31,187 bases of DNA from a virus (lineage: Duplodnaviria; Caudoviricetes), in IMG/VR virus record IMGVR_UViG_3300025848_000131, positions 1 to 31,187 of that record, one strand, 5' to 3'. Both the position numbers and the translations under genes were made by a program. This document shows positions 2,914-29,736 of the stretch, in pieces (positions within the stretch are counted from its first letter, which is position 1; each line of letters begins with the position of its first letter). The notes under the pieces are model-generated. The model saw only the letters and a program-made list of their open reading frames with translations. It had not been told where the DNA came from and ran no database searches.

Positions 2914-3774
2914 ATGAAGCACTTGGTCCTCGCGGCCCTGCTCGCGCTCACCGCCTGCAAGTCCGGCCCCCCTGTTGGCGACCCGCCGGTCGACCCCGGC
3001 CCTCCCGTAGACGTGACCCCCATCTCCAAGCCCCCGGCGGGCGGAGAGCCGGTCTCCTGGTATAGGCCGGCCCCGCGCCTCAAGTTCCAGATCCTGGACG
3101 AGGACGACGGCGACTACGTGGACCAGCTCAAGGCCGGCACGCAGATCGTGAACATCGAGGCGGTGAAGGAGGACTACTCCGAGCTCGCCCAGCAGGTGGC
3201 CGACCTCCACGAACAAGGCGTGCGGGTCATCTGCTACCACTCCCTCTCCTACGAACCCTGGCGTCACGACATCGGCCAGTTCCCCTCCAAGGCGAAGGGC
3301 AAGAAGATGTCCGGCTGGAACGAGTGGTGGGCCGACGTGCGCGTGAGCTCCCCCGCCCACGCCTTCTGGGACAAGCGCTACGACCAGTTCGCTAAGGCGG
3401 GCTGCGACTGCGTGGAAGACGACAACGAGGTGGATCCCGAGGACAACGAGACCGGGTTCCCCCTCACCCGCGCCGAGGCGGGTGCGGCCAACAAGCGCCG
3501 GGCCGACTACGCCCACAAGGTGGGCATGTGCCACATCGCCAAGAACAACCCGACCATTTCCGACCTGAAGGCCCAGCACAGCGACGGGGTGTTCATCGAG
3601 GAGGCGGGGCGCTACAACGAGCGCGAAGACTATCTTCCCTGGAAGGCGGCCGGGAAGTTCGCGGCCATGGTGGAGTACACCTCCAAAGGATGCAAACCCT
3701 ACGCGGGGTTCAAAGTGCAGTACCACTCCAGCGGGGACTACTTCGACGGGGTCAAGTTCAAGGATTGCGACTAG
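2914..3774 (+). CDS. Lipoprotein endo-alpha-1,4-polygalactosaminidase (GH114-like)
   Basis: Lipobox LTAC, Pro-rich tether, then RVICY..SYEPWRHD, GCDCVEDDN, NETGFPLT, AHKVGMCHIAKNN, FIEE matching the GH114 TIM-barrel pattern. Confidence 0.85.
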   Translation: MKHLVLAALLALTACKSGPPVGDPPVDPGPPVDVTPISKPPAGGEPVSWYRPAPRLKFQILDEDDGDYVDQLKAGTQIVNIEAVKEDYSELAQQVADLHEQGVRVICYHSLSYEPWRHDIGQFPSKAKGKKMSGWNEWWADVRVSSPAHAFWDKRYDQFAKAGCDCVEDDNEVDPEDNETGFPLTRAEAGAANKRRADYAHKVGMCHIAKNNPTISDLKAQHSDGVFIEEAGRYNEREDYLPWKAAGKFAAMVEYTSKGCKPYAGFKVQYHSSGDYFDGVKFKDCD

Positions 3775-8773: not shown

Positions 8774-10055
8774 CTACCAGTTGGAGGGTGTCGAGTACGC
8801 TCTCCAACACCATTACTGCGTAATCGGTGATGAGATGGGCCTGGGGAAAACTCTCCAGGCCCTCCTCCTCATGCACCGGACCGGGCTGCCCACCGTCGTG
8901 GTGTGCCCGGGCTACCTGCGGGACAACTGGGAGCGCGAGGCCCAGGAGGCCTTCGCCTTCCCGCCAGTCACCTACGTGGTGCACGATAAGCACGACGCGG
9001 AGTACATCTCCAAGCTCCTCCTGGGGCCCGAGAAGATCGACCTGAACTTGGTCATCCTCTCCTATGATCTCCTGGACAAATGCTCCACGGTGTTCCGCTG
9101 GGCCAAGCTCTACGTGGCCGACGAGTGCCACTACCTGAAGAATATTTCAACCAAAAGAACAAGGACTTTCCATGCCTATGTACAGGCATTTGCTCCTGAT
9201 CGATTTGTCGGATTGTCGGGAACACCTATTAAGAATAACGCGGCAGAGTGGTTTTCCCTCCTCACCCTCTGTTCTTTCAATCCTTCGGCTACCTCCGGGG
9301 TCGATCTTAGAGCAACTGGCGTTCGATCCTTTTACTCATTTGCTGAGATGTTCGCTAATAAACGAGAGCGAAGATTTGGAGGTCGGAAAGTTGTTACTTA
9401 TTCCGGGGTCAAAAATATTGAAAAGCTCAAAGAAATCCTTAAAGGAAAGTACATCCGGCGACTGGCCGACGACATCCTAGAGCTCCCGGAGATCATCGAG
9501 CGGGAGGTCCTGTGCACCTCCGACAACCAGGACACCCTCCTGGGGAAGGCGTGGGCGGGCGAGATCGACAAGGACGCCATCTCCAAGGCGAAGAAGGAGT
9601 GCGCCACCGCCAAGGCCTCCTTCACCCTGGCCACCGCCACCGAGATCCTGGAGCAGGGCGAGGGGCCGGTCATCGTCTTCTCCGACCACCTGGACCCGGT
9701 GGAGCACATCTCCCAAGGCCTGGAGAAGGCGGGCCATCGGGTGGGGGTCATCCAGGGGAGCGTCCCCTCGGACAAGCGCTACGAGATCGTCCAGGAGTTC
9801 CAAAACGGGCGCCTGGACGCCATCGTGGCCACCATCGGCAGCGCTTCTACCGGGTTCACCCTGACCCGCGCCAGGCACATGGTCTTCAACGACATCCCCT
9901 GGGTACCGGCGGACCTCCAGCAGGCGAAGAAGCGATTCCATCGGATCGGGCAGACCCAGAAGTGCTTTGTGCACTATGTTAGTGGGTCCCCTATCGACTC
10001 CATGATTACTCGCACGGTAAAGTCTAAGGCAAGAACCCTAGAGAAAAGCCTATGA
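8745..10055 (+). CDS. SNF2-family (HARP/SMARCAL1-like) helicase
   Basis: YQLEGV, DEMGLGKT, DECH, LSGTPIKN, GFTLT, QAKKRFHRIGQ. Confidence 0.93.
   Translation: MSNLRKVPYSYQLEGVEYALQHHYCVIGDEMGLGKTLQALLLMHRTGLPTVVVCPGYLRDNWEREAQEAFAFPPVTYVVHDKHDAEYISKLLLGPEKIDLNLVILSYDLLDKCSTVFRWAKLYVADECHYLKNISTKRTRTFHAYVQAFAPDRFVGLSGTPIKNNAAEWFSLLTLCSFNPSATSGVDLRATGVRSFYSFAEMFANKRERRFGGRKVVTYSGVKNIEKLKEILKGKYIRRLADDILELPEIIEREVLCTSDNQDTLLGKAWAGEIDKDAISKAKKECATAKASFTLATATEILEQGEGPVIVFSDHLDPVEHISQGLEKAGHRVGVIQGSVPSDKRYEIVQEFQNGRLDAIVATIGSASTGFTLTRARHMVFNDIPWVPADLQQAKKRFHRIGQTQKCFVHYVSGSPIDSMITRTVKSKARTLEKSL
9172..9480 (+). CDS. Candidate overprinted gene in the +1 frame of the helicase (102 aa)
   Basis: AAGGA-6nt-ATG; coincides with loss of GC3 bias in the helicase frame. 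Confidence 0.35.
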   Translation: MPMYRHLLLIDLSDCREHLLRITRQSGFPSSPSVLSILRLPPGSILEQLAFDPFTHLLRCSLINESEDLEVGKLLLIPGSKILKSSKKSLKESTSGDWPTTS

Positions 10056-10800
10056 AAGAGACCATTGCCGTATGGTTTAGCTGCGGGGCCGCCAGCGCGG
10101 TGGCCGCCAAGCTCACTCTCGAAAGGTACGGGGAGACCCACCACGTCCGCATCGTGAACAACCCTGTGAGGGAGGAGGACCAGGACAACCTCCGGTTCTT
10201 GAGGGATGTGGAGAAGTGGTTGGGGCGCCCCATCGAGAGCGCCACCAACCCCAAATACCCAGATTGTTCCGCCATCACCGTCTGGTACGATCGACGGTAT
10301 ATGTCCGGGACCAAGGGCGCCCCGTGCACCACCGAGCTCAAGAAGAGGGCCCGCCTGCACTGGGAGAGTGGGAACCATGTGGACTGGCACGTCCTGGGGT
10401 TCACCGCCGACGAGGCCACCCGGCACAGGCGCTTCATCCTGACGGAGAGGGCCAACGTCCTCCCCGTCCTGATCGACGCCGGGGTGACCAAGGAGGACTG
10501 TTTCAAGGTCCTCCAGGAGGCTAACATCCCCCTTCCCCGCATCTACGGGCTAGGATACCCCAACGCCAATTGTATCGGCTGCGTGAAGGCCACGTCCCCA
10601 CCTACTGGAACCATGTCCGCCAGATGCACCCTGAGGTCTTCGAAGAGAGGGCCAAGCAGTCCAGGGAGATCGGCGCCCGCCTCGCCCGCTACCGCAAAAA
10701 GCGGGTCTTCCTGGACGAGCTCCCGGCGGACGCCAAGGGCAGGAGCATGAAGAAGTGGACCGCCGAGTGCGGGATATTCTGCGAGGAGAAACCCCGATGA
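10052..10800 (+). pseudogene. PAPS-reductase-family (PP-loop, Fe-S) protein split by a single-base frameshift at about 10596-10599
   Basis: WFSCGAASAV, PCTTELKK, YPNANCIGCVK in one frame; TYWNHVRQMHPEVF...ECGIFCEE continues in the -1 frame and ends in ATGA overlap with the amidase. Confidence 0.8.
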
Positions 10801-11264
10801 CCTCCACCATCCGTCGAATCGACCAAATCGTCCTCCACTGCACCGGGAGCGACAACCCCACGGGCAACAAGTTCGAGAACGTCCGCGCCTACCACATGGC
10901 CCCGCCCAACAAGGGCGTCTGGTGGAACGGGAAGTGGATCAAGGGCCGGGGGTTCAAGGACATCGGCTACCACTTCTACATCGACCACTTCGCCAAGCTC
11001 CACCAGGGCCGGAGGGTGGAGGTGGTCGGTGCCCATTGCGAGGGGCACAACGCCCACTCCATCGGCATCTGCCTGGCGGGCGACAAGACCTTCTACCCGG
11101 AACAGTTCGCGGAGCTGGCCACCCTGGTCCGGCGCCTGTGCGTCCTCTTCAACCTCGACCCCCGCACCCAGGTGGTGGGCCATGAAAAATTAGATTTAAA
11201 AGGTAAGACATGCCCTAATTTTGACTGGAGGGCGTGGATAAACAAGGAGTTTCCCGGTGGATAA
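10797..11264 (+). CDS. N-acetylmuramoyl-L-alanine amidase (T7 lysozyme/Amidase_2 type endolysin)
   Basis: IVLHC, DIGYHF, GAHCEGHNAHSIGICL, VVGH, KTCPNFD; GAGGAG RBS before ATG 10797. Confidence 0.93.
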   Translation: MTSTIRRIDQIVLHCTGSDNPTGNKFENVRAYHMAPPNKGVWWNGKWIKGRGFKDIGYHFYIDHFAKLHQGRRVEVVGAHCEGHNAHSIGICLAGDKTFYPEQFAELATLVRRLCVLFNLDPRTQVVGHEKLDLKGKTCPNFDWRAWINKEFPGG

Positions 11265-11844
11265 GGATACAAGAAATCGAGGGCTGTCAGGAGAAGAAAA
11301 GGCGCATTCTAGGCATTTAAGGGTGTTGAAAGAGCGGGAAGAGGCTGAGAAATCAAAAATACTTCAAGAGTCCCCCGACAAGGTGATGGAGAACAAGATC
11401 ATCGCCGAGCAGGAGGAAAAGGTTCGCCGCTACCAAGCCGAGAACAAGCGCCTCTTCAACGAGATCATCGAGGACGGCCTGACCAAGGGGGCGATGGCGG
11501 AGGAACTCAACCGCCTGGCCAACGGCGGCACCGACTTCTCCCTCTTCAACCTCATGCTGGAGCGGGTGGACTTCCGAGAGTGCCACAACATGCTGGAAGC
11601 CATGAGAAAGATGTACGAGAACCTCTGGCCCTTCTACGCCCGCACCATCCTGGAGAACGCCTTCCTGAGGAAGGTCACGGAGAAGGCCGGCGTCGAGAAC
11701 ATGGGACACCGCCTTTCCGAAGCGGAGATGGTTAGGCTTCACGAGATTCTCCAGGGCGAGGTGGACCCGAATGGGCTGGCCCGCCGGACCCTGGAGGAGA
11801 TCCGCGCCCTGGCCAAGAAACGCCGGGAACTCAACCTGTACTGA
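11257..11844 (+). CDS. Hypothetical helical/coiled-coil protein (195 aa)
   Basis: AAGGAG RBS before GTG; GC3-biased codons. Confidence 0.8.
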   Translation: MDKDTRNRGLSGEEKAHSRHLRVLKEREEAEKSKILQESPDKVMENKIIAEQEEKVRRYQAENKRLFNEIIEDGLTKGAMAEELNRLANGGTDFSLFNLMLERVDFRECHNMLEAMRKMYENLWPFYARTILENAFLRKVTEKAGVENMGHRLSEAEMVRLHEILQGEVDPNGLARRTLEEIRALAKKRRELNLY

Positions 11845-11846
11845 CC

Positions 11847-11990
11847 ATGGTCATGTGGAAGATACGATTCTTCCTGCACCATCTCAGATGGCCCACACCG
11901 TACGAAGTACTGGAGAAATTCCATGCAGACCTACTCGAAAACTTCCGAGAAGAACTCCCCTGGGACCCAAGCGGAAAAGTGGAGGACTAG
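11847..11990 (+). CDS. Possible 47-aa protein MVMWKIRFFLHHLRWPTPYEVLEKFHADLLENFREELPWDPSGKVED (absent from ORF track)
   Basis: ATG two bases after the upstream stop; fills the gap; overlaps the next ORF. Confidence 0.45.
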   Translation: MVMWKIRFFLHHLRWPTPYEVLEKFHADLLENFREELPWDPSGKVED

Positions 11991-12117
11991 GGCCCAGGCG
12001 CTGGCGTGGCTGTTGGTCGGGTTGCTGGTGATCATGTCCTGGGCGTTCCTGCTGGCCCTGCCCATCGACACCGAGGTGCACCTGCCCGAGTGCCCATCCA
12101 TCTACTGCCTGGACTAA
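11923..12117 (+). CDS. Small single-TM protein (64 aa)
   Basis: GGAGA RBS; ALAWLLVGLLVIMSWAFLLALPI; C-terminal Cys pair; stop adjoins the terminator. Confidence 0.65.
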   Translation: MQTYSKTSEKNSPGTQAEKWRTRAQALAWLLVGLLVIMSWAFLLALPIDTEVHLPECPSIYCLD

Positions 12118-12148
12118 AAAAGAAGGGCCCTCTCATAAAGGGCCCTTC
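12116..12148 (-). terminator. Terminator at the convergence of the two arms (possibly bidirectional)
   Basis: 10-bp stem GAAGGGCCCT/AGGGCCCTTC with a U6 tract on the - strand. Confidence 0.85.
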
Positions 12149-12181
12149 GTCTTGAAGAAAATGGCGAGACAGACATTTACT

Positions 12182-12679
12182 TCAAGGAGTCACGTTCCAG
12201 TATTCCACCGGCAGGAGGATGTAGCCGTCGGTCACGGCGACCCCGCCAGGGCCGATGTTGGCCGTCAGGGTGCAGCCGTCCGAGGTGTACACGGAGGTGG
12301 CGGCGGTGCCCGTCGGGATGCCTTCCTTCTTCGACCCGGCCGTGATGTTCGATCCGGTGGAGTAGGCCACCGCGGCCACCAGGTCGGCGGAGGTCTCGCA
12401 ACCGAAGGAGATGAGGTTGTTGGAGGCGGAGGCGACCGCTTCTTTGATGAAGACGAAGGAGCGCACGATCAGGGACGCCGGGGGGATGCTCACGTTCAGG
12501 GAGACCGCGTCCCCGCTGGCCAAGGAGCTGTCCACCTTGAGCTGGGCGACCACGACCTTCTTTCCATCGAGTTCCTTGAACTTCTTCTGGATGGCCGGGG
12601 GGATGGGGGACTTGGAAGTCACCGCCCACGACACCCCGGTCGAGAGCAGAAGGGCCAGGCCCAGGATCAGGTTCCTCAT
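12182..12679 (-). CDS. Exported protein resembling the capsid cement/decoration protein (165 aa)
   Basis: AAGGAG RBS; signal peptide MRNLILGLALLLSTGVSWA; colinear similarity by eye to 28259..28732. Confidence 0.75.
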   Translation of the reverse strand: MRNLILGLALLLSTGVSWAVTSKSPIPPAIQKKFKELDGKKVVVAQLKVDSSLASGDAVSLNVSIPPASLIVRSFVFIKEAVASASNNLISFGCETSADLVAAVAYSTGSNITAGSKKEGIPTGTAATSVYTSDGCTLTANIGPGGVAVTDGYILLPVEYWNVTP

Positions 12680-12683
12680 GGGG

Positions 12684-13769
12684 TCACTCCTTGCAAGGTG
12701 ATTGAATAATTTTAGCGTAGCACAAGATCATTAAAAGTGTAGTGGCCGAGATGTGGAAAGTGAGGTTCCCGAACGAGTTGACCCACAGGATCAAGAAAGC
12801 GTAGAACCAGGCGCTCGACCGGTCCCGGACCTGCAGCAGGAGGGCGGCCAAGGCGGCCAGCCCCGCCACCCCCCAGGCGGCGTGCACCTCCATAGGCTCG
12901 CTGTGGAGCTGGAGGAAGATCAGGTTCCCGTCCCGGTACACCGAGCGGAAGGTGTCGTGCACGTACCCCACCCCACGCCCCAGGAGGTGGTCCAGGGAGG
13001 CCCAGGACCCCACGTGCTCGCCCCACTTGGACCACGCCGGCACCCGCCCGCTGGTGGAGGCCCAGGCGCTGTCCCGGACCATCCAAAGCCCCGCCAGGAC
13101 GTGGATCCCCGCCAGCCCCACCAGGACCTTCCCGTTCTTCTGCCGGGCGATCCACCACACCCCTGCCGCCAGGACCCCGGCCCACGCCATGGTGGAGTTG
13201 CACAGGTACAGCCCGTAGAGGGCGGGGGCCAGCAGGGGCCAGGACCAACGGGTCAGGAGGAAAGGCACCATGGCCGCCAGCAAGGGGGCGGAAATCGAGG
13301 GGTTGTGCAGGACGCCCATGATGGTGTTGGTGGTGTCCGCGGACCCCCCGGTGGCCCAGTTCCGGCGCAGCCCGACCCAGTTCCAGGGATCGGTTCCCAG
13401 GGAGTTGGCCACCAGCCACACCACCTGCACCGCCACCGAGGCGTAGATGAAGGGCAGGATCCGCTTCCAGTCCCGGGGCGTGAACTCCATCCCCTGGGCA
13501 AGAATTGACCACCCCGCCATGACCATGAGGGACTGGTGGTACACTGAGACCGAATAGGGGTGGTACTGGTTCCAGAAGGTCAGGAGGGCGATGGCCACGA
13601 AGGCGGTCAGGATCGTGCCTTTAAAGGCCCTGGCCCCGAACATCCCTATCCCGAGCAGGGCCGACCAGAGAAAGAGGCCATCCTTGGCGAACCTCAGGTC
13701 CCCCCCAGGCACCAACCGAAGGAACATGGGGAGTACCAATAGGATAAGGCCCCAATAGACACCACGCAT
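12684..13769 (-). CDS. O-antigen ligase / O-oligosaccharyltransferase-like (Wzy_C/WaaL superfamily) polytopic membrane protein
   Basis: About 10 or more hydrophobic segments; GVLHNPS, LCNSTMAWAG, STSGRVPAW, LLGRGVG, LQLHSEPMEVHAAWGVAG correspond to the NPN, SR, R..W, GxGxG and HN..E.G motifs. Confidence 0.8.
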   Translation of the reverse strand: MRGVYWGLILLVLPMFLRLVPGGDLRFAKDGLFLWSALLGIGMFGARAFKGTILTAFVAIALLTFWNQYHPYSVSVYHQSLMVMAGWSILAQGMEFTPRDWKRILPFIYASVAVQVVWLVANSLGTDPWNWVGLRRNWATGGSADTTNTIMGVLHNPSISAPLLAAMVPFLLTRWSWPLLAPALYGLYLCNSTMAWAGVLAAGVWWIARQKNGKVLVGLAGIHVLAGLWMVRDSAWASTSGRVPAWSKWGEHVGSWASLDHLLGRGVGYVHDTFRSVYRDGNLIFLQLHSEPMEVHAAWGVAGLAALAALLLQVRDRSSAWFYAFLILWVNSFGNLTFHISATTLLMILCYAKIIQSPCKE

Positions 13770-13809
13770 CTAATATCTCCTGTCAGAAGTCCCTACAAAT
13801 GTAGGGCCT

Positions 13810-14148
13810 TTAATATTTTCGATTTCTGGGGACCACACGATAGCCCATGTCGATCAAACGTTGGACTTGCGCCGGATCATTCATGTCGTAGTAGTCCGTC
13901 TGCCCCTCCTTGCATTTAGAGGAGAGGAACACCCTGTCCACGCAATGCCAGTAGTAGAGGTGCCCAGGTCGGAGCTTACTGAAGTACAGAGTCCTTTCCC
14001 CCAGCGGAGGAACGGACAGTGCGAGAGAGCTGGCACAGCCGGCCGCAAAGATCATCAACGACAGCAAAATCTTGGTAGTCTTGGCGGAGATGCTTGGGAA
14101 TCTCTCCCGTAGGGCCCTCATAGATCGGCTTGCGGACTTCCTCGTCAT
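13810..14148 (-). CDS. Putative lipoprotein, o-spanin (Rz1)-like position
   Basis: AGGGAG RBS; ILLSLMIFAAGC lipobox-like; begins inside the upstream ORF in another frame; Cys pair in mature part. Confidence 0.65.
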   Translation of the reverse strand: MTRKSASRSMRALRERFPSISAKTTKILLSLMIFAAGCASSLALSVPPLGERTLYFSKLRPGHLYYWHCVDRVFLSSKCKEGQTDYYDMNDPAQVQRLIDMGYRVVPRNRKY

Positions 14149-14260
14149 ACTCCCTCTCCAGCTTGTGGGCCTCGTCCAGGTACTTGTTCTTGTCCTTGTG
14201 CAGGAGGTACGTGATGCTCATTTTCACACTGGCCAGAAGCTCGGTGAATAGTGCCGTCAT
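13976..14260 (-). CDS. Hypothetical protein in the lysis cluster, Rz-like position (94 aa)
   Basis: Amphipathic N-terminus then charged helix; overlapped by the lipoprotein ORF. Confidence 0.6.
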   Translation of the reverse strand: MTALFTELLASVKMSITYLLHKDKNKYLDEAHKLEREYDEEVRKPIYEGPTGEIPKHLRQDYQDFAVVDDLCGRLCQLSRTVRSSAGGKDSVLQ

Positions 14261-14366
14261 CCTTCCCCCGAATGGCGTTTATGGTCCGCCTGAGACTAGA
14301 AATGGCACCGGGAAGCTCCTTGATAAGGGCCAGAATTGTCCCTATCCGAGCGGCCCAGTGCCACAT
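14145..14366 (-). CDS. Possible small amphipathic protein (73 aa)
   Basis: Starts 3 nt after the previous stop; amphipathic first 35 aa; stop overlaps the lipoprotein ATG. Confidence 0.45.
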   Translation of the reverse strand: MWHWAARIGTILALIKELPGAISSLRRTINAIRGKDDGTIHRASGQCENEHHVPPAQGQEQVPGRGPQAGEGV

Positions 14367-14369
14367 GAC

Positions 14370-14717
14370 TTAGGACTCTTTGGTCTGGAACATGAGGACC
14401 AGGGCGTAGAGCTCCAGGGCCACCTTCAGCCCGGTCTCGACCGCCGCTTCGACGTTCTCCTGCGGGATGTTGAACTCCGCCACCACATAGGCGTGCAGCT
14501 CGGCCTTCTCCTCGGCGTCCAGGTCCAGGAGCTCGTTCTTGATGCCGCTGATGCCGTCGAAGGCCTCGGGCGCCTTGAGCAGCACGGGCAGGGCCAGCGA
14601 GGCCTCCGCGATCTCCAGTTTGCCGTCGGCCAGGGCCACGCCCACGGCGTTGCCGATGCCCAGGCCGAAGCCCAGGAGTTCTTTGGTTTCCTTCACGCCG
14701 AATTTCTTGTCGCCCAT
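14370..14717 (-). CDS. Hypothetical helical protein in the lysis cluster (115 aa)
   Basis: AAGGAGA RBS; strong GC3 bias. Confidence 0.8.
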   Translation of the reverse strand: MGDKKFGVKETKELLGFGLGIGNAVGVALADGKLEIAEASLALPVLLKAPEAFDGISGIKNELLDLDAEEKAELHAYVVAEFNIPQENVEAAVETGLKVALELYALVLMFQTKES

Positions 14718-14732
14718 AGGGTCTCCTTCAGG

Positions 14733-14981
14733 TTAGGGGCCCGAGGGCCCAGGTAGTTTGCAGGTGCGTTCGTCCATTATACACATCCCCAGGAGCAGTC
14801 GGTCAATTTTGTGGTCCTGCCTGTCGATGCGCTGGGAGAGCATGTGCACCTGGTCCTGCACCCGGGTTTCAACCCCGTGAAGTTGCGAGACCGTCACGAA
14901 GGACGTGATGAAGTGGTACAGGAGAAAGCCGGCCAGGGACACCAGGGCGGCAGCGATGTGGGAGCGGAATTCCTTGAACAT
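14733..14981 (-). CDS. Single-TM plus coiled-coil protein (82 aa), holin- or i-spanin-like
   Basis: AGGAGG RBS before ATG 14981; IAAALVSLAGFLLYHFITSFV; C-terminal CIMDERTC. Confidence 0.65.
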   Translation of the reverse strand: MFKEFRSHIAAALVSLAGFLLYHFITSFVTVSQLHGVETRVQDQVHMLSQRIDRQDHKIDRLLLGMCIMDERTCKLPGPSGP

Positions 14982-15011
14982 GGGTGCCTCCTGGTGCCTC
15001 CTTGGCACCGC

Positions 15012-15275
15012 TTACTGGGTGTTTTCCAAATCCTTCAGGAGGATGTCCACGTAGTTCACCACCTGCTCCCGGGCCCTCTCCACCAGGCGGGCCTTCATTT
15101 CCTTGGAGAGAAGGGCCTTAAATTCCGGGGTGAGGGGAGGGGCGATGGAGTCCAGGTAGGCGTCCACCCCGGAGACTTGGGTGTTCATCTTCTGGAGAGC
15201 GGCCTTCTGCTTATCCCCCAGGGCGGCGTAGGAGGAGGAGGACAGGAGGATCAGGGACAGGGTCAAGGTCTTCAT
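15012..15275 (-). CDS. Small exported helical protein (87 aa) directly after the fibre gene
   Basis: AAGGAGA RBS; signal peptide MKTLTLSLILLSSSSYA. Confidence 0.8.
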   Translation of the reverse strand: MKTLTLSLILLSSSSYAALGDKQKAALQKMNTQVSGVDAYLDSIAPPLTPEFKALLSKEMKARLVERAREQVVNYVDILLKDLENTQ

Positions 15276-15284
15276 AAAATCTCC

Positions 15285-17750
15285 TTAGTAACCCATACAA
15301 GTGACGGATATGGCGCAGTTCTCGAACCCAGCACTTTGCATTTTTTTACACCCGATGTAGTAGGCGTTTTGCGTCTGAGCCCCGGTAGTTTGAGTGGGGG
15401 TGGCCCCGTCCACCGAGTACTCGATGGTGGTGGCGGTGCAGTTATAGGTGTCAGCTCCAGACCAATAACCGGTGTTGAAATTGGTGGTGTAGTTCCCAGT
15501 GGAGTTCCAATTCACGGAGCTCACACAGTCGTTGAGCTCCGAACGCACGGTGCACGGGTTGGAGGTGCACGTGGAATGGCGAGACCCCGCCCCGCCGATG
15601 GCGTAGGAGCAGATCTTGATCTGGTTGGCGCCCGCGCCCGGGGCCACGATCAAATCCGGGGTGGAAGTCTCGATGGTCCACGCCGACCCGGTCCAGCGGC
15701 ACTCCTTGTCCAGGGTGGTGTCGTAGACGCACTTACCTTCGTCGGCGCTGCCCAGAGACGCCCCCAGGGTGTTCCTCTGAGTGGTGGTCATCCGGTTGCA
15801 GGGGATGGAGGCCACGGTGTCCCCGATGGCCTGAATGGACTTGGCGGTCATCAGGGCGGTGAAGCTGCCCGTAGCGCCATTCACGGTGCCGGCGATCAGG
15901 AGATCGGCGGTGGCGTTCGTGACGGTGAGGTTGGGGACACTCAACAAGTCCGCGGTGGCGATGTAGTTGAACACGGCCTCGTCCACCAGGTCGCCCGAGG
16001 CGTTGGTGTAGGGCACCCGGGTGTTGGTCAGCCCGTCCGCCCCGCCAGCGGACTTCCAGGTGCCGGTCAGGGCGTTGTAGGTGTTCCACTTGTGCAGGTC
16101 GGTGTCGTACACGCAGTCGCCGTCCCCGGGGGAGGCAATGGCGTTCTTCTGGGCGGTGGTCATGTCCGGGCAGGGGTTGGAGGCCACCAGCGTGGAGGTG
16201 GCCACCAGGCGCCCGTTGATGGTCGCCACATCCGAGGCGAAGTCCATGTGGATGAGAGGGTTAGTGGTGCCGGAGTTGTCGATGAATCCCTGGTTGGACC
16301 CAGTGAACTGGTTTCCGGCCTGGTACCCCAGGAACAGGTTCCCGCTGCCGGTGGTGGCATTGCCGGCCTGGTACCCCAGAGCGGTGTTGTTGGTCCCGGT
16401 CGAAACGGTGCCCAGGGCCTGATAACCCACCCCCACGTGCCCGGTCCCGCTAGTGTTGGCCCCCACGGCCGTGTGTCCCACGGCCACGTTGCCAGCGGCG
16501 GTGTTCAGTCCCAGGGCGCTCGACCCCACGGCCACGTTGTCGTTGCCGGTCTGGTTCATGCCCAGGGCGCTGGAACCGATGCCCACGTTGTTGTTGGCGC
16601 CGGTCAGCACTTCGCCGGCAGTCCAGCCCACGAAGGTGTTGTTGTCCCCTCCGGTGTTGGAGAAGAGGGTGTTGAGTCCCACGGCCACGTTGCGGATGGC
16701 CGCAGAGGTGTTCAGGCTGCCCGAGGAGGCCCCCACGAAGGTGCTGGCCGCGTCCGCCCGGTTGCCCAGGTAGATGGAGCCGTTGTCCACGGTCATGGGG
16801 CCGGCCAAGGAAATGGAGGAGTCGGAGGCCAGGTACACAAGCCCCGGGGTGGTGGCCAGCGCCCCGCTGGAGGTGATGTAGGGGATGCGGTCCGCGGTCA
16901 GGGGAGTGAAGAGGCTGCCCGAGTAGGTCAGGTTGGAGATGCCGGTCATCGACCCGGTGGCGGAGATGCCCACCACCGAGTTCTTCACGTCGTCCCCTCC
17001 CGTACCGTCCCACAGGACGATGGCGCTGTCGGAGACCGCGGTCTCCCGGTTCAGGTCATCGGAGAGCTCCTGCCAGCGGAGGGCGGCCAGGTCGGTGGCA
17101 AAGGTTCCGGAGGTGTGGGAGATGAGGGTGTTGTAGATCTTCCCGCCCACGTGCACCACGTCCCCGGTGGCGTAGGCGTTGGCGGTAATCCAGGCGAAGA
17201 GCCCAGAGCCCATGGACTTCCAGGCGGTACCGTCGAAGTTCTGGTAGACGCCCGAGGTAGTGTTGAAGATGCACAACCCCTGGGCCGGCGAGGCGATCAG
17301 GTCCCGGCTGGCCAGGGACAGGCGCGGGCAGGGGCGGGACCCCAGGGTGTTGGAGGTCACGTCGAAGATGGTGGAGAGGTCCGGCGAGGCGCCCAGCCCC
17401 AGGCCGTTGTCGAAGAGGTACAGGTTCTCGGAGTTGACCCAGTTCACCCCATCGAAGCGCAGCACGTCTCCGGTCGCCTTGCCGGCGGTGGAGATGTTGT
17501 TCAGGTCCTCCAGGTCGGAGTTCCCGCCCAGGAGCACGTCCGACTCCAGCCCGGTGTCGTCCAGGTAGTACAGGCGGTTGTCCGTCTTGGGGTAGAGGAA
17601 CCCGTAGCTGGCCACGATGGAGGGGGAGGCGGTCCGCTCCTTCATCTGGATCTTGCCGTCTTCCACCACCCAGTCGGTGTAGTACTTGGCCGCCTGCGCG
17701 GGCAGCACCAGGGCCAGGAGGACCAGGATCATCAGTTGGTAGTGCTTCAT
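15285..17750 (-). CDS. Tail-fibre/adhesin-like protein with N-terminal Sec signal peptide (821 aa)
   Basis: MKHYQLMILVLLALVLPAQA; CBM5/12-like module; YadA-head-like 14-aa repeats (NxAVGxxAL); three P-C-x-x-(M/L)...C-(I/V)-(F/Y)-(N/D)-T...W modules; Cys-rich C-terminal domain. Confidence 0.85.
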   Translation of the reverse strand: MKHYQLMILVLLALVLPAQAAKYYTDWVVEDGKIQMKERTASPSIVASYGFLYPKTDNRLYYLDDTGLESDVLLGGNSDLEDLNNISTAGKATGDVLRFDGVNWVNSENLYLFDNGLGLGASPDLSTIFDVTSNTLGSRPCPRLSLASRDLIASPAQGLCIFNTTSGVYQNFDGTAWKSMGSGLFAWITANAYATGDVVHVGGKIYNTLISHTSGTFATDLAALRWQELSDDLNRETAVSDSAIVLWDGTGGDDVKNSVVGISATGSMTGISNLTYSGSLFTPLTADRIPYITSSGALATTPGLVYLASDSSISLAGPMTVDNGSIYLGNRADAASTFVGASSGSLNTSAAIRNVAVGLNTLFSNTGGDNNTFVGWTAGEVLTGANNNVGIGSSALGMNQTGNDNVAVGSSALGLNTAAGNVAVGHTAVGANTSGTGHVGVGYQALGTVSTGTNNTALGYQAGNATTGSGNLFLGYQAGNQFTGSNQGFIDNSGTTNPLIHMDFASDVATINGRLVATSTLVASNPCPDMTTAQKNAIASPGDGDCVYDTDLHKWNTYNALTGTWKSAGGADGLTNTRVPYTNASGDLVDEAVFNYIATADLLSVPNLTVTNATADLLIAGTVNGATGSFTALMTAKSIQAIGDTVASIPCNRMTTTQRNTLGASLGSADEGKCVYDTTLDKECRWTGSAWTIETSTPDLIVAPGAGANQIKICSYAIGGAGSRHSTCTSNPCTVRSELNDCVSSVNWNSTGNYTTNFNTGYWSGADTYNCTATTIEYSVDGATPTQTTGAQTQNAYYIGCKKMQSAGFENCAISVTCMGY

Positions 17751-19099
17751 TACAACCTCGAAATTTCCAGGATTTGCCAGGACACGTAGGAATTGGCGGT
17801 GTCGTAGTTCCCGCCGGCCATGTTGTCGGTCTCGTAGTACACCTGCCCCACCTCTTCGCCCGCCGGGCCGGACTGCTGAACCGAGAAGGTCACGCCGTCC
17901 AGGTTCCCGATGATCTTGGTGGTGGACTCCCGCTCAACGTACCAGGTGCCGTTGATGTAGTGCATGAGGAGCACGCAGGTGGTGAACCGGAACTCGGCAT
18001 CGTCCTTCCGCTGGATCTGCACATGCACCCGGGCGGACCTGGCCCCCACGGCGGAGAGGTGGAAGATGTTCCCCACCCCGGCCTCGCCCGCGGCGGCGTC
18101 CAGGGCAGTGGCGGAGGCGTTGTTATTCAGGCGCTGCTTGCCCACCGCCCGGTTGATGGCCACAGCGCCCTCGAGGGCAAGGATACGGGCGTTGTGGGTC
18201 GAAATGTCGGTGTCCAAGGAGGTGACATCCGACTGGAGGGTGGTGATGACAGACAGGTTCGGGACCTGGGAAGCGATGGCCTGGGCCGTCCTCAAGGGAG
18301 ACATCCCCTTGGTGTTGTCGGTGCCCGCCTGGGCCTCGGCCTGGGAGGCGATGGCGGAGAAAATGCCGTCCGCGCCGGGCGCCCCGTTGGCACCCGCGGG
18401 ACCTTGGGCCCCGGTGGCCCCGGTGGCCCCGGTGGCCCCGGTCTCGCCCGCAGGCCCCTGGGCCCCCGCCGCCCCGGTCATGGCCGTCCATCGGGAGGCG
18501 GTCAGGTCGGAGTCGAAGGTGCCGGAGGTGTGTTGGGTCAGGCAGCGGTAGATCACCGTGTCGTAATAGACGATGGTGCCCACCGGATACAGGGTGGCCG
18601 TGACCCACGCAGGGATGGCGTAGTCGCCCTCTAGGTTGGTCCCCGCGGCGTCCCACTTGATGAACTTGTGGCGGGCCTCCAGGGGGAGGGTGATTCCGGA
18701 TAGGGCCGAGGAGGCGTGCAGTTGGATGGACTGGAGGAGGGCGTAGACAATCTCTTGGATCATCTGCACCAGGCGGTCGAACTTTGCCTCGATGCTGGAG
18801 GCGGGGAAGGTGGTACCGGTGTACGGGGTGGTCTGGGTCTTGGGGGTCACCCGCTTGATGGTGATGGCGTCCCCGTTGGCCGGGGCCACGGCGAAGACCA
18901 GATCCCCGCCCGCGCAGATGCCGTCGGAACCGGCGGCGCCCTCGGTGATGGAGTATCCGGACCCCTGGAGGACGCCGTTCTTGTACACCTGGAAAATGGT
19001 GGACGCTTCGTTGTCGAAGAAGTCGATGGTGAAGGGGAAGGTCGTCGTGGAACCATCCCCAGTGAAGGATTGGGCCACAGCCGTGTTACTCACGCTCAC
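17750..19099 (-). CDS. Tail fibre with T7 gp17-like N-terminal attachment domain
   Basis: FTGDGSTTTFPF...APANGDAITIKRVTP...FDRLVQMIQE; CBM5/12-like module; collagen segment; coiled coil. Confidence 0.88.
   Translation of the reverse strand: MSVSNTAVAQSFTGDGSTTTFPFTIDFFDNEASTIFQVYKNGVLQGSGYSITEGAAGSDGICAGGDLVFAVAPANGDAITIKRVTPKTQTTPYTGTTFPASSIEAKFDRLVQMIQEIVYALLQSIQLHASSALSGITLPLEARHKFIKWDAAGTNLEGDYAIPAWVTATLYPVGTIVYYDTVIYRCLTQHTSGTFDSDLTASRWTAMTGAAGAQGPAGETGATGATGATGAQGPAGANGAPGADGIFSAIASQAEAQAGTDNTKGMSPLRTAQAIASQVPNLSVITTLQSDVTSLDTDISTHNARILALEGAVAINRAVGKQRLNNNASATALDAAAGEAGVGNIFHLSAVGARSARVHVQIQRKDDAEFRFTTCVLLMHYINGTWYVERESTTKIIGNLDGVTFSVQQSGPAGEEVGQVYYETDNMAGGNYDTANSYVSWQILEISRL
18365..18475 (-). 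repeat. Collagen-like (Gly-X-Y)12 repeat including tandem 9-bp units
   Basis: GAAGAQGPAGETGATGATGATGAQGPAGANGAPGADG. Confidence 0.9.
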
Positions 19100-28258: not shown

Positions 28259-28732
28259 TTACTTGTTGACGTACTCGATTTCGACGGTCAGGACAGCGTC
28301 CAGCACCGTGCCGTCCATGACCTCGGTCCAGGTCAGGTAGAGCTCGGTCTCTTCGCCGAAGCGCTTGAACAGCGAGGGCGAAGCCTCGTTGGCGCGCTTC
28401 AGGGCGGCCTGGCCGCCGCCGTCCGCCTGGTCCACCAGGCCGTCGCTGTCGGCGGAGATGGCGTTCCCGGACTCATCGGTCGAGGCCGCATGGCCCAGGT
28501 CCACGATGCCCGTGGCGCCCAGGGACTTGCTGATGAAGACCTTCGCATCGGTGACGAAGGAGTTCGCGGGGAGTTTCCCCACGTAGTCCACGTCACCGAC
28601 CTGGCGGGCGGCCGACAGGGTGATGCGCTCGATCAGCTTCTTGGGGGTACCACCCAGTTCGCCCGGGGGGTAGGACACCTTGGGGTCCTCACGGTAGGCG
28701 TTCTGGTAGTTGGTTCCGTAGCGGGTAGTCAT
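28259..28732 (-). CDS. Capsid cement/decoration protein (Bbp16-like position)
   Basis: GAGGAG RBS; between capsid gene and terminator; beta-rich with GKLPANSFV motif. Confidence 0.75.
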   Translation of the reverse strand: MTTRYGTNYQNAYREDPKVSYPPGELGGTPKKLIERITLSAARQVGDVDYVGKLPANSFVTDAKVFISKSLGATGIVDLGHAASTDESGNAISADSDGLVDQADGGGQAALKRANEASPSLFKRFGEETELYLTWTEVMDGTVLDAVLTVEIEYVNK

Positions 28733-28782: not shown

Positions 28783-29736
28783 TTAGAGCTCCTTACAGAT
28801 GACCTCCTGGAGCTGCACCTCTTCCATCCGCACGGCGCCCATGCTGAACTTGCCGTAGATCTGGTGGGCGTAGTGGTACTCGGGCATCTCAGTGATGCGG
28901 ACGTTCTTGGGGGCGCCCATGGCCGCGATCAGGCAGCGCTTGCTGGTGAAGGCGAAGCAACGGCGACCTTCGCCCAGGGCCACGGTGCCGCCCGCGCCGC
29001 CGTCCACTTCGCCAGTGGCGGGGGTGTAGGTGGTCGCAGCAGAGGTGAAGGGCAGGAGTTCGGTCTGGATGAACTTGAACCCCATGAAGGTGTCCACATC
29101 GCCTTGGGCGAGGGCCTTCACGGTGTTGAAGTCGGCGGAGGTCACCTCGGTGTTGCCGAGCAGGTCATCGATCTGCTGGGCGGCGCACACGAAGATGAGC
29201 TGCTCGTTCTTGCCGACGGCCTCGGCCTGGCGGAACTTCTTCTTGACCGCGCGGAGGGTCTCCACGTTCAGGCCCGAACCGGTGACGGACACGCCGTCGA
29301 AGGCGCACAGCTTCTGGGAGTTGGGGAGGGCGACCGCGACGGTGCCTTCCTTGCCGGTGTAGGCGTTGCCCAGGGCGCTGTCGATGATGATCTGGTCCAT
29401 CTCGCGGGCCAGGGCGGCAGAGATCGCCTGGGCGTACTCGTTGTCCAGGTTCTGGATGGTGCGGATCTTGTCCTCGTCGTCCACCAGGTCGGCGACGTAC
29501 TTGTCGAGCATGGACACCTTCCGACGGGAGTGCGGGGTGTCGCTGTAGGCCACTTTCGAGTGGCGACCGGCCTTGTCCTGGGCGGCCAGGAGACCGATGC
29601 GGTCGAAGAACTTGCTCTCGCCGACGAAGCTCTCATGACGGCAGAACTCGTACAGGCGGGATTCTTTCTGCTGCGCCAGGTGCATGACGTTGGCGCTGAA
29701 CATTTTCACGTGTGCGGTAGAAACTTGCTGGCTCAT
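28783..29736 (-). CDS. Major capsid protein (BPP-1 Bbp17-like, HK97 fold)
   Basis: LAQQKESRL, FFDRIG, DTPHSRR, TSADFNTVKAL..GDVDTFMGFKFI, MGAVRMEE; GGAGG RBS. Confidence 0.95.
   Translation of the reverse strand: MSQQVSTAHVKMFSANVMHLAQQKESRLYEFCRHESFVGESKFFDRIGLLAAQDKAGRHSKVAYSDTPHSRRKVSMLDKYVADLVDDEDKIRTIQNLDNEYAQAISAALAREMDQIIIDSALGNAYTGKEGTVAVALPNSQKLCAFDGVSVTGSGLNVETLRAVKKKFRQAEAVGKNEQLIFVCAAQQIDDLLGNTEVTSADFNTVKALAQGDVDTFMGFKFIQTELLPFTSAATTYTPATGEVDGGAGGTVALGEGRRCFAFTSKRCLIAAMGAPKNVRITEMPEYHYAHQIYGKFSMGAVRMEEVQLQEVICKEL

Follow-up and report, generated by a model that had tools for sequence, protein, structure and literature searches.

The locus and its place in the late operon

The window, by which we mean the whole stretch of DNA analysed, is a 31,187-base virus record from a short-tailed phage (podophage) whose late operon lies on the minus strand. 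This operon runs from a scaffold-like gene through the capsid gene, the gene at 28259–28732, tail tubular proteins A and B and the internal virion proteins to a T7-gp17-like anchor with collagen, an 821-aa fibre, small lysis-type genes, a 361-aa membrane protein and, as its last gene, ORF 12182–12679 (Table 1). The latter is 16 kb downstream of the capsid gene and not in the post-capsid slot, where the cement gene of this phage is found. The nearest cultured capsids were of the Pelagibacter HTVC010P type (37–43%) and the Ralstonia DU_RP_II type (34%). No sigma-70-like promoter was found on the minus strand across positions 11800–15400.

The ORF and its boundaries, 165 amino acids at 12182–12679, had been given correctly in the preliminary description, and an independent assembly (run X4, one contig across 12010–12731) had zero differing letters. 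The same protein was also found on a 41,568-base contig by a word-based homologue search, which returned two proteins, query included. Sequencing runs containing the window DNA were freshwater metagenomes, with no RNA dataset listed among them. The lipobox-bearing gene in the lysis block suggests, as far as such a motif can, a host with two membranes. A genome scan for the host yielded 57 loci, among which only L134 matched most of the C-terminal part of the anchor; this locus, on a contig of 42,973 bases binned as Flavobacteriaceae, may be a phage placed in the wrong bin.

Three plus-strand features of the window were recorded separately. The early/replication block holds a lipoprotein (2914–3774; lipobox LTAC) with a GH114 glycoside hydrolase domain. 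A PAPS-reductase-like gene (phrog_424) at 10052–10800 has a C-terminal part that seems to be continued in another frame (ORF 10570–10800), seemingly through a frameshift or an assembly error. An Amidase_2 endolysin, encoded at 10755–11264, does not share the strand of the holin/spanin-like block.

Table 1. Positions in the window of the capsid, tail and lysis genes considered here and of the features of ORF 12182–12679.
Feature	Position	Strand	Basis
Major capsid protein	28783..29736	-	PF19821, phrog_3437
Ordinary cytoplasmic jelly-roll cement, 157 aa, directly after the capsid gene	28259..28732	-	Fold model and structure matches
T7-gp17-like anchor with collagen repeat (short fibre/adaptor), cytoplasmic, without signal	17750..19099	-	PHROG and Pfam
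Fibre-like protein, signal-bearing, 821 aa, 15 Cys	15285..17750	-	PHROG virion/tail-spike matches; tblastn to tail fibres
Small signal-bearing protein, 87 aa, after the fibre	15012..15275	-	
Lipoprotein with lipobox-like AAGC; probable o-spanin of the lysis block	13810..14148	-	Position and motif
O-antigen-ligase/O-OTase-like membrane protein, 361 aa, directly upstream of ORF 12182–12679	12684..13769	-	Homologues; R242 and H289 kept
Ribosome-binding site AAGGAG, 7 nt before the ATG, within the 3' end of the upstream gene	12687..12692	-	
Putatively exported cement-fold protein, 165 aa, final late-operon gene	12182..12679	-	Profiles, fold model
Predicted Sec signal peptide, residues 1–19, cleavage after A19 (SWA/V), without lipobox	12623..12679	-	Hydropathy heuristic, family columns; helix 2–16 in model
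Conserved P25..P28..K/R33-F34..E/D38 motif and helix; predicted three-helix stalk, candidate docking end	12566..12607	-	
Cys94, end of strand 89–93	12398..12400	-	
Cys136, start of strand 136–142; predicted disulfide partner of Cys94	12272..12274	-	
Intrinsic-terminator-like hairpin, 12 pairs, T-tail, directly after ORF 12182–12679	12122..12148	-	

Homology to the capsid cement

Pfam, PHROG and NCBIfam assigned no family to the ORF 12182–12679 protein itself (called the exported protein below, after its predicted signal), a viral-contig scan with this single protein gave no match, and BLASTP against the 28259–28732 cement was not significant (E 3.0). Profile comparisons gave P 0.002 for the cement profile against the single protein, E 4.7e-5 for a five-sequence profile of the exported protein against the cement and, for family against family (94 sequences, hhalign), a probability of 96.3% with E 1.7e-9 over 151 columns. 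The preliminary description had aligned the two proteins by eye through four pairs of motifs; all four were in register in the family-family alignment, which bore out the homology. With the signal, stalk and N-arm removed, the domains alone still aligned (hhalign, 95.5%, E 1.5e-8, 114 columns). A cement HMM scored the mature exported protein at 12.0 bits, a value reached by 0 of 2000 shuffles (maximum 7.8), and ranked it top among the non-cement ORFs of 1245 (E 0.012). Homology between the two proteins is thus confirmed at the level of sequence profiles.

The same relationship was seen in predicted structures. The AF2 model of the exported protein (pLDDT 91) matched, among solved structures compared by VIA, the cements of Pam1 (7eel_H, Z 12.0, rmsd 2.5, 115 aligned), GP4 (8h89_J, Z 10.2, rmsd 3.0, 120 aligned) and KHP40 (7dou_4, Z 9.2, rmsd 3.7, 106 aligned), with a baseplate chain of siphophage R4C as the fourth match (Z 9.1); Foldseek gave E 1.5e-5 to 6e-4 for the solved cements. 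The model of the window cement (pLDDT 93) matched the same three chains at Z 15.0, 13.3 and 11.3, respectively, which identifies the 28259–28732 product as a cement by fold. The capsid-decoration fold that the preliminary description had ascribed to both proteins was accordingly recovered, each model having been compared with solved structures and the top three cements being shared. By sequence, a PDB search with the exported family gave only a weak match (26de_W, 'Structural protein', E 0.085), and searches with the cement profile and the ligase profile (see below) gave nothing useful.

Signal, cysteines and stalk of the putatively exported family

A phmmer search of 1.84 billion representatives returned 97 matches at E up to 0.001 and a profile search added six, giving with the query a viral family of at least 104 proteins. 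In the raw table, 79 members had both a signal and the Cys pair, four had a signal without the canonical pair, 11 had the pair without a signal and 10 had neither. Sorting by eye indicated that eight of the 11 members with a pair and no signal start within the signal or mature region, and these were dropped as truncated; the remaining three have a signal that the rule had missed, and the flagged P0141 (a Phage_cement_2 fusion) was reassigned to the signal-less group. This left 85 full-length exported members and 11 signal-less ones.

The 165-residue protein is laid out as a signal (1–19), the motif and helical stalk (about 25–38) and a jelly-roll (39–163). Its predicted signal has an M-R n-region, a hydrophobic core and S17-W18-A19, followed by V20. 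Across the family, the -3 column holds A, V or S in 66 of 83 members and the -1 column A, S or G in 78 of 83, with a lipobox in none of the 83. Signals were assigned by a hydropathy heuristic and not on the basis of SignalP; it flagged a signal-like start in 80 of 98 family members compared to 1 of 53 cements. The 19-residue signal peptide proposed in the preliminary description is supported to this extent, export and cleavage being predictions from the heuristic and the -3/-1 columns.

C94 and C136 were present in 82 of the 85 full-length exported members, and the three exported members without them carry a different Cys pair. Mature cysteines numbered two in 82 members and four in three, with an odd number in none, while the 11 signal-less members do not have the pair and carried no Cys (eight members), one (two members) or two (one member). 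In the model, C94 is at the end of strand 89–93 and C136 at the start of strand 136–142, strands that by jelly-roll topology are presumably antiparallel neighbours. Mean-field DCA placed C94-C136 at rank 1 of 7381 pairs, a rank that is confounded by phylogeny, and did not recover the strand-register couplings around the pair (ranks 514–6809). A Cys94-Cys136 disulfide is predicted to form in the periplasm. The preliminary description had contrasted two cysteines in the exported protein with none in the cement, which holds for the two conserved residues and for the window cement but not in general, since 51 of 53 cement homologues have one to three Cys. A start resembling a secretion signal together with two conserved cysteines makes it likely that the protein folds outside the cytoplasm.

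These counts also bear on the idea that the start was miscalled and that the real product is a second cytoplasmic cement initiated at an internal Val. P0002, which is 82% identical, is recorded from that Val, and eight of the 104 members are recorded with short N-termini. However, the ATG has a strong ribosome-binding site, signal-like N-termini occur in 85 members at 25–54% identity, and the Cys counts are even; we consider a miscalled start scarcely credible. Among ordinary cement homologues, P0008, P0010, P0013 and P0014 have about 20 extra N-terminal residues, rich in Phe and Leu, which may themselves be start miscalls.

Equally, the hydrophobic N-terminus could be an uncleaved membrane anchor and the protein a lysis accessory such as an Rz-like spanin, as phrog_20969, which carries the label 'Rz-like spanin', is matched by 23 of 94 members (best E 5e-8) and the gene directly follows the lysis block. 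An i-spanin combines a membrane anchor with a periplasmic domain of long helices, whereas the model here is a beta jelly-roll, the small-residue -3/-1 pattern is conserved and the gene is missing from complete relatives. Moreover, phrog_20969 also matches signal-less post-capsid cements (the window cement and that of L197), so its label is probably wrong. With cements matching both with and without signals, we rejected the label for this family and regard the spanin reading as very improbable.

The term paralog, used in the preliminary description, applied only loosely. The protein is homologous to the window cement, but in a quick tree of 130 columns the 19 sampled members of the window cement's family were set apart from the exported family by a long, fully supported branch, and on the basis of this tree we rejected a recent duplication of the window cement. 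The nearest signal-less relatives of the exported family are other phage proteins, two of them in the post-capsid slot of different phages. These two are the post-capsid genes of L132 (E 5e-11) and L197 (E 1e-10), compared with only about 1e-3 to 1e-4 for cements of the window's own clade. Because closer signal-less kin sit behind the capsid genes of other phages, the two window genes are best described as ancient out-paralogs, with a different lineage as a possible source of the exported gene.

P0151, P0153 and P0155 bear signals and an alternative Cys pair and are nested among signal-less relatives, a pattern that suggests that export and the disulfide arose more than once. The signal-less and alternative-pair members form one clade in the quick tree (SH-aLRT 91), so the link between signal and cysteines, like the DCA rank, reflects about one to three events rather than 11. 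The jelly-roll was also seen in other contexts: behind a Phage_cement_2 (PF09956) domain in P0141, at the tip of a 416-aa repeat fibre in P0112, and behind a holin-like segment with an internal signal in P0139. A tblastn search of 50,697 GenBank phage records with P0001, P0110, P0142, P0058 and P0098 gave no convincing match; the signal-less P0135 matched hypothetical proteins of two Cylindrospermopsis phages (cyanophages; E 3–4e-9).

At the N-terminus, in place of the capsid-anchoring arm of the cements, the exported family has a conserved Pro/Arg-Phe motif and a coiled-coil stalk whose length varies. The N-arm motif was present in 47 of 53 cements and in none of the 85 exported members, and the export-family motif in 38 of 85 exported members and none of the 53 cements; its individual positions were kept in 77 (P25), 53 (P28), 60 (R/K33) and 54 (F34) of the 85. 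The stalk measured 14–66 residues in 83 of 85 members. Motif and domain were 16 residues apart in 28 members; in others the spacing was as long as 66, with some inserts heptad-like or fibre-like; in the model, the helix that follows the motif runs into the first strand. As the arm is gone, the exported protein is not simply a second cement.

Three mature chains were predicted to form a homotrimer with a score of 0.75, compared to 0.02 for the best of three controls. Among solved structures, 20 of 30 homo-pairs attained the mark for this score, as did 1 of 23 single chains. Runs agreed in at least 67% of contacts with pLDDT of at least 77, and the contacts involved the stalk helix and the sheet of the first, third and last strands. 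Since solved cement trimers exist, the score shows likeness and not binding, and the pass may reflect resemblance to those trimers. In the models, the protein takes the shape of a trimeric knob on a stalk, unlike a flat cement.

Neighbouring genes and the proposed route to the virion

Seven distinct loci carried an exported member (the window, L105, L109, L132, G001, G002 and G006), and a signal-less cement gene was also seen in five of them, with none in L105 and L109 within the stretch examined. The exported gene is optional, being present in two of five relatives that are at least 90% complete and absent from three. It is located away from the structural block in L012 and L132, resembling a mobile accessory gene in this respect.

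Directly upstream of the exported gene, an O-antigen-ligase-like gene was found in four of the seven loci, belonging to two phage types (the window; L105:11254–12375; L109:13642–14859; L132:1819–3075). Homologues in L105 and L109 passed the Wzy_C (PF04932) cut-off, as did the L132 copy across an internal stop, in a phage with a different capsid family. The window protein had no Pfam match, was similar to the L105 homologue (BLASTP E 1e-21) and shares R242 and H289 with its homologues in an alignment; its family matched no solved structure by sequence. Ligase-profile matches among 190 loci numbered four, all adjoining the exported gene, although three of these four had been used to build the profile.

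This neighbourhood raises the possibility that the protein serves chiefly as a glycan carrier, on which the adjacent Wzy_C-like enzyme would place undecaprenyl-linked host glycan at Ser/Thr in the periplasm before the spike coats the virion. Such a role is compatible with the docking spike proposed below. In the part of the literature available to us, dedicated O-OTases (TfpM, TfpO and PglS with pilin; Wzy_C, PF04932) are described as acting in the periplasm and as encoded beside their cognate acceptor (PMC9829042). Here too, a membrane-enzyme gene adjoins the gene of a putatively exported protein; the differences are that the candidate acceptor is a phage cement-fold protein encoded downstream of the enzyme, that the pair is optional and that the activity is putative. 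Ser and Thr made up 19.7% of the exported proteins compared to 11.2% of the cements, but signal-less relatives were also rich in them (16.9%), neither D-S/T-x (59 vs 57.6 expected) nor N-x-S/T motifs (71 vs 96.9 expected) were enriched, and Ser content failed to separate ligase-linked from unlinked copies. Furthermore, G001 and G002 are complete and carry the exported gene without a ligase, Wzy_C was absent from all five near-complete relatives (at least 90% complete), the L132 ligase has its internal stop, and the enzyme could instead act on host LPS or on the fibre. Judging from these sequence features, the protein may be O-glycosylated in phages with an adjacent Wzy_C gene, and we think it quite improbable that carrying glycan is its main role.

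The exported gene is accompanied in this clade by another signal-bearing gene. Of 25 loci scripted, the end of the anchor was found in 21 rows (18 distinct), and the long fibre gene that follows had a signal-like start, judged by eye, in 16 of the 18 distinct loci, including the window, L035, L036, L037, L039, L040, L042, L043, L045–L048, L105, L106, L111 and L131; L109 is a probable seventeenth. In L108 and L134, the fibre slot holds a homologous N-terminus without a signal, which means that exported and cytoplasmic versions occupy one virion-gene slot. Several genomes have further signal-bearing genes, with at least five in a row in L039.

Our preferred explanation, held with modest confidence, is that ORF 12182–12679 encodes a Sec-exported, disulfide-bonded, cement-fold spike that docks on virions at lysis. 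It would be expressed late, from the end of the late operon, exported through Sec and cleaved, after which the Cys94-Cys136 disulfide would close in the periplasm. There it would trimerise into a short spike with a coiled-coil stalk and a cement-type knob, as the fold and homotrimer models suggest. Once lysis mixes the compartments, the spike would dock on finished virions through its N-terminal P-x-x-P...R-F motif, with the capsid three-fold or the tail adaptor as candidate sites, and the knob would have a role in adhesion or shielding. Lambda gpD, T4 Soc and Hoc and the P22 tailspike all bind finished particles in vitro, so late docking would be physically ordinary and the export step is the unusual part. 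A late-added decoration fits best among the three roles raised in the preliminary description; a glycan carrier has the support of the neighbourhood in four of seven loci, and a decoy is possible.

The evidence was also weighed against a trimer that is exported but never joins the virion, acting in the periplasm, at the cell surface or in the lysate as a decoy, a lectin or an exclusion factor directed at rival phages or at host defences. The known capsid anchor is lost together with the N-arm, which counts against virion docking; the gene is optional and varies in position; and bacteria place signal-bearing, phage-fibre-like trimers on their own surface, as described for the Bdellovibrio MAT proteins in the part of that work available (PMC10769870). 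These are likewise trimeric adhesins, although they are bacterial surface proteins of about 1000 aa (PMC10769870) and are likened here by description. On the other hand, the gene ends a late operon, is followed by a terminator-like hairpin and has no sigma-70-like promoter of its own in the stretch scanned, its conserved N-terminal motif suggests a fixed phage-coded partner, and the long fibre of the clade would take the same route. Neither PF00589 nor PF00239 (integrase/resolvase) was found in any of the five near-complete relatives, which weakens a role confined to lysogens. We consider it rather unlikely that the trimer stays off the virion.

Solved cements provide the closest comparison. 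The jelly-roll cements of Pam1 (7EEL chain H), Ralstonia phage GP4 (8H89 chain J), Helicobacter phages KHP30/KHP40 (7DN2, 7DOU) and phi24B (gp67) share the fold, the trimer of the exported protein being predicted. Compared to them, the exported protein has a signal peptide, a conserved Cys pair and a motif with a coiled-coil stalk in place of the N-arm, and its gene closes the late operon rather than following the capsid gene, is optional and occurs alongside a normal cement. It is therefore a jelly-roll decoration in fold and predicted trimer but fails two features of a cement, namely the N-arm and the cytoplasmic, post-capsid gene. According to the available part of the phi24B report, gp67 trimers sit where three capsomers meet, held in place by the N-arm, and both gp67 and Pam1 gp6 are proposed to take part in host recognition (bioRxiv 10.64898/2026.04.10.717836). 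By analogy with that anchor, the replaced N-terminus is a natural candidate for a new docking end. Cyanopodophage A4 has a two-cement capsid, described in the accessible part of its report as gp37 dimers with auxiliary gp25 CBM trimers (PMC12002296). As proposed here, a second, auxiliary trimeric beta-sandwich sits atop the main cement with a possible receptor-binding role, but the two A4 cements are distinct from those solved previously and that part of the report mentions no export signal (PMC12002296).

Virion proteins with Sec signals are familiar from filamentous phages. There, pIII and pVIII remain membrane-anchored and are built in during extrusion, with pIII gaining its disulfides in the periplasm, in contrast to the present case, in which the virion is a tailed particle assembled in the cytoplasm. 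The usual assumption is that tailed-phage particles are completed before lysis, while still in the cytoplasm. None of the titles and abstract openings searched dealt with Sec-exported cements or fibres in tailed phages, and virion proteomics tables could hold a precedent. The feature itself is real and conserved, and the sequence and model evidence points to a putative, undescribed assembly route. A broader proposal, which we offer tentatively as possible rather than probable, is that virion assembly in this lytic podophage clade is divided between two compartments, with the core head and tail made in the cytoplasm and the long fibres and the cement-derived trimeric spike made in the periplasm. 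There, the fibres and the spike would acquire disulfides and, in some members, host glycan that a phage Wzy_C enzyme attaches by O-glycosylation, before being clipped on during lysis.

With cytoplasmic and exported cement homologues in one genome and a small, well-modelled protein, this locus is a clean test case, for which signal-less relatives, genomes without the gene and genomes without the ligase are natural controls. A conserved family that combines the cement fold with export signals and paired cysteines, found in phages whose long fibres also bear signals, points to an assembly step that is possible only at or after membrane rupture. If this is true, tailed-phage virions would gain access to periplasmic chemistry, namely disulfides and lipid-linked glycans.
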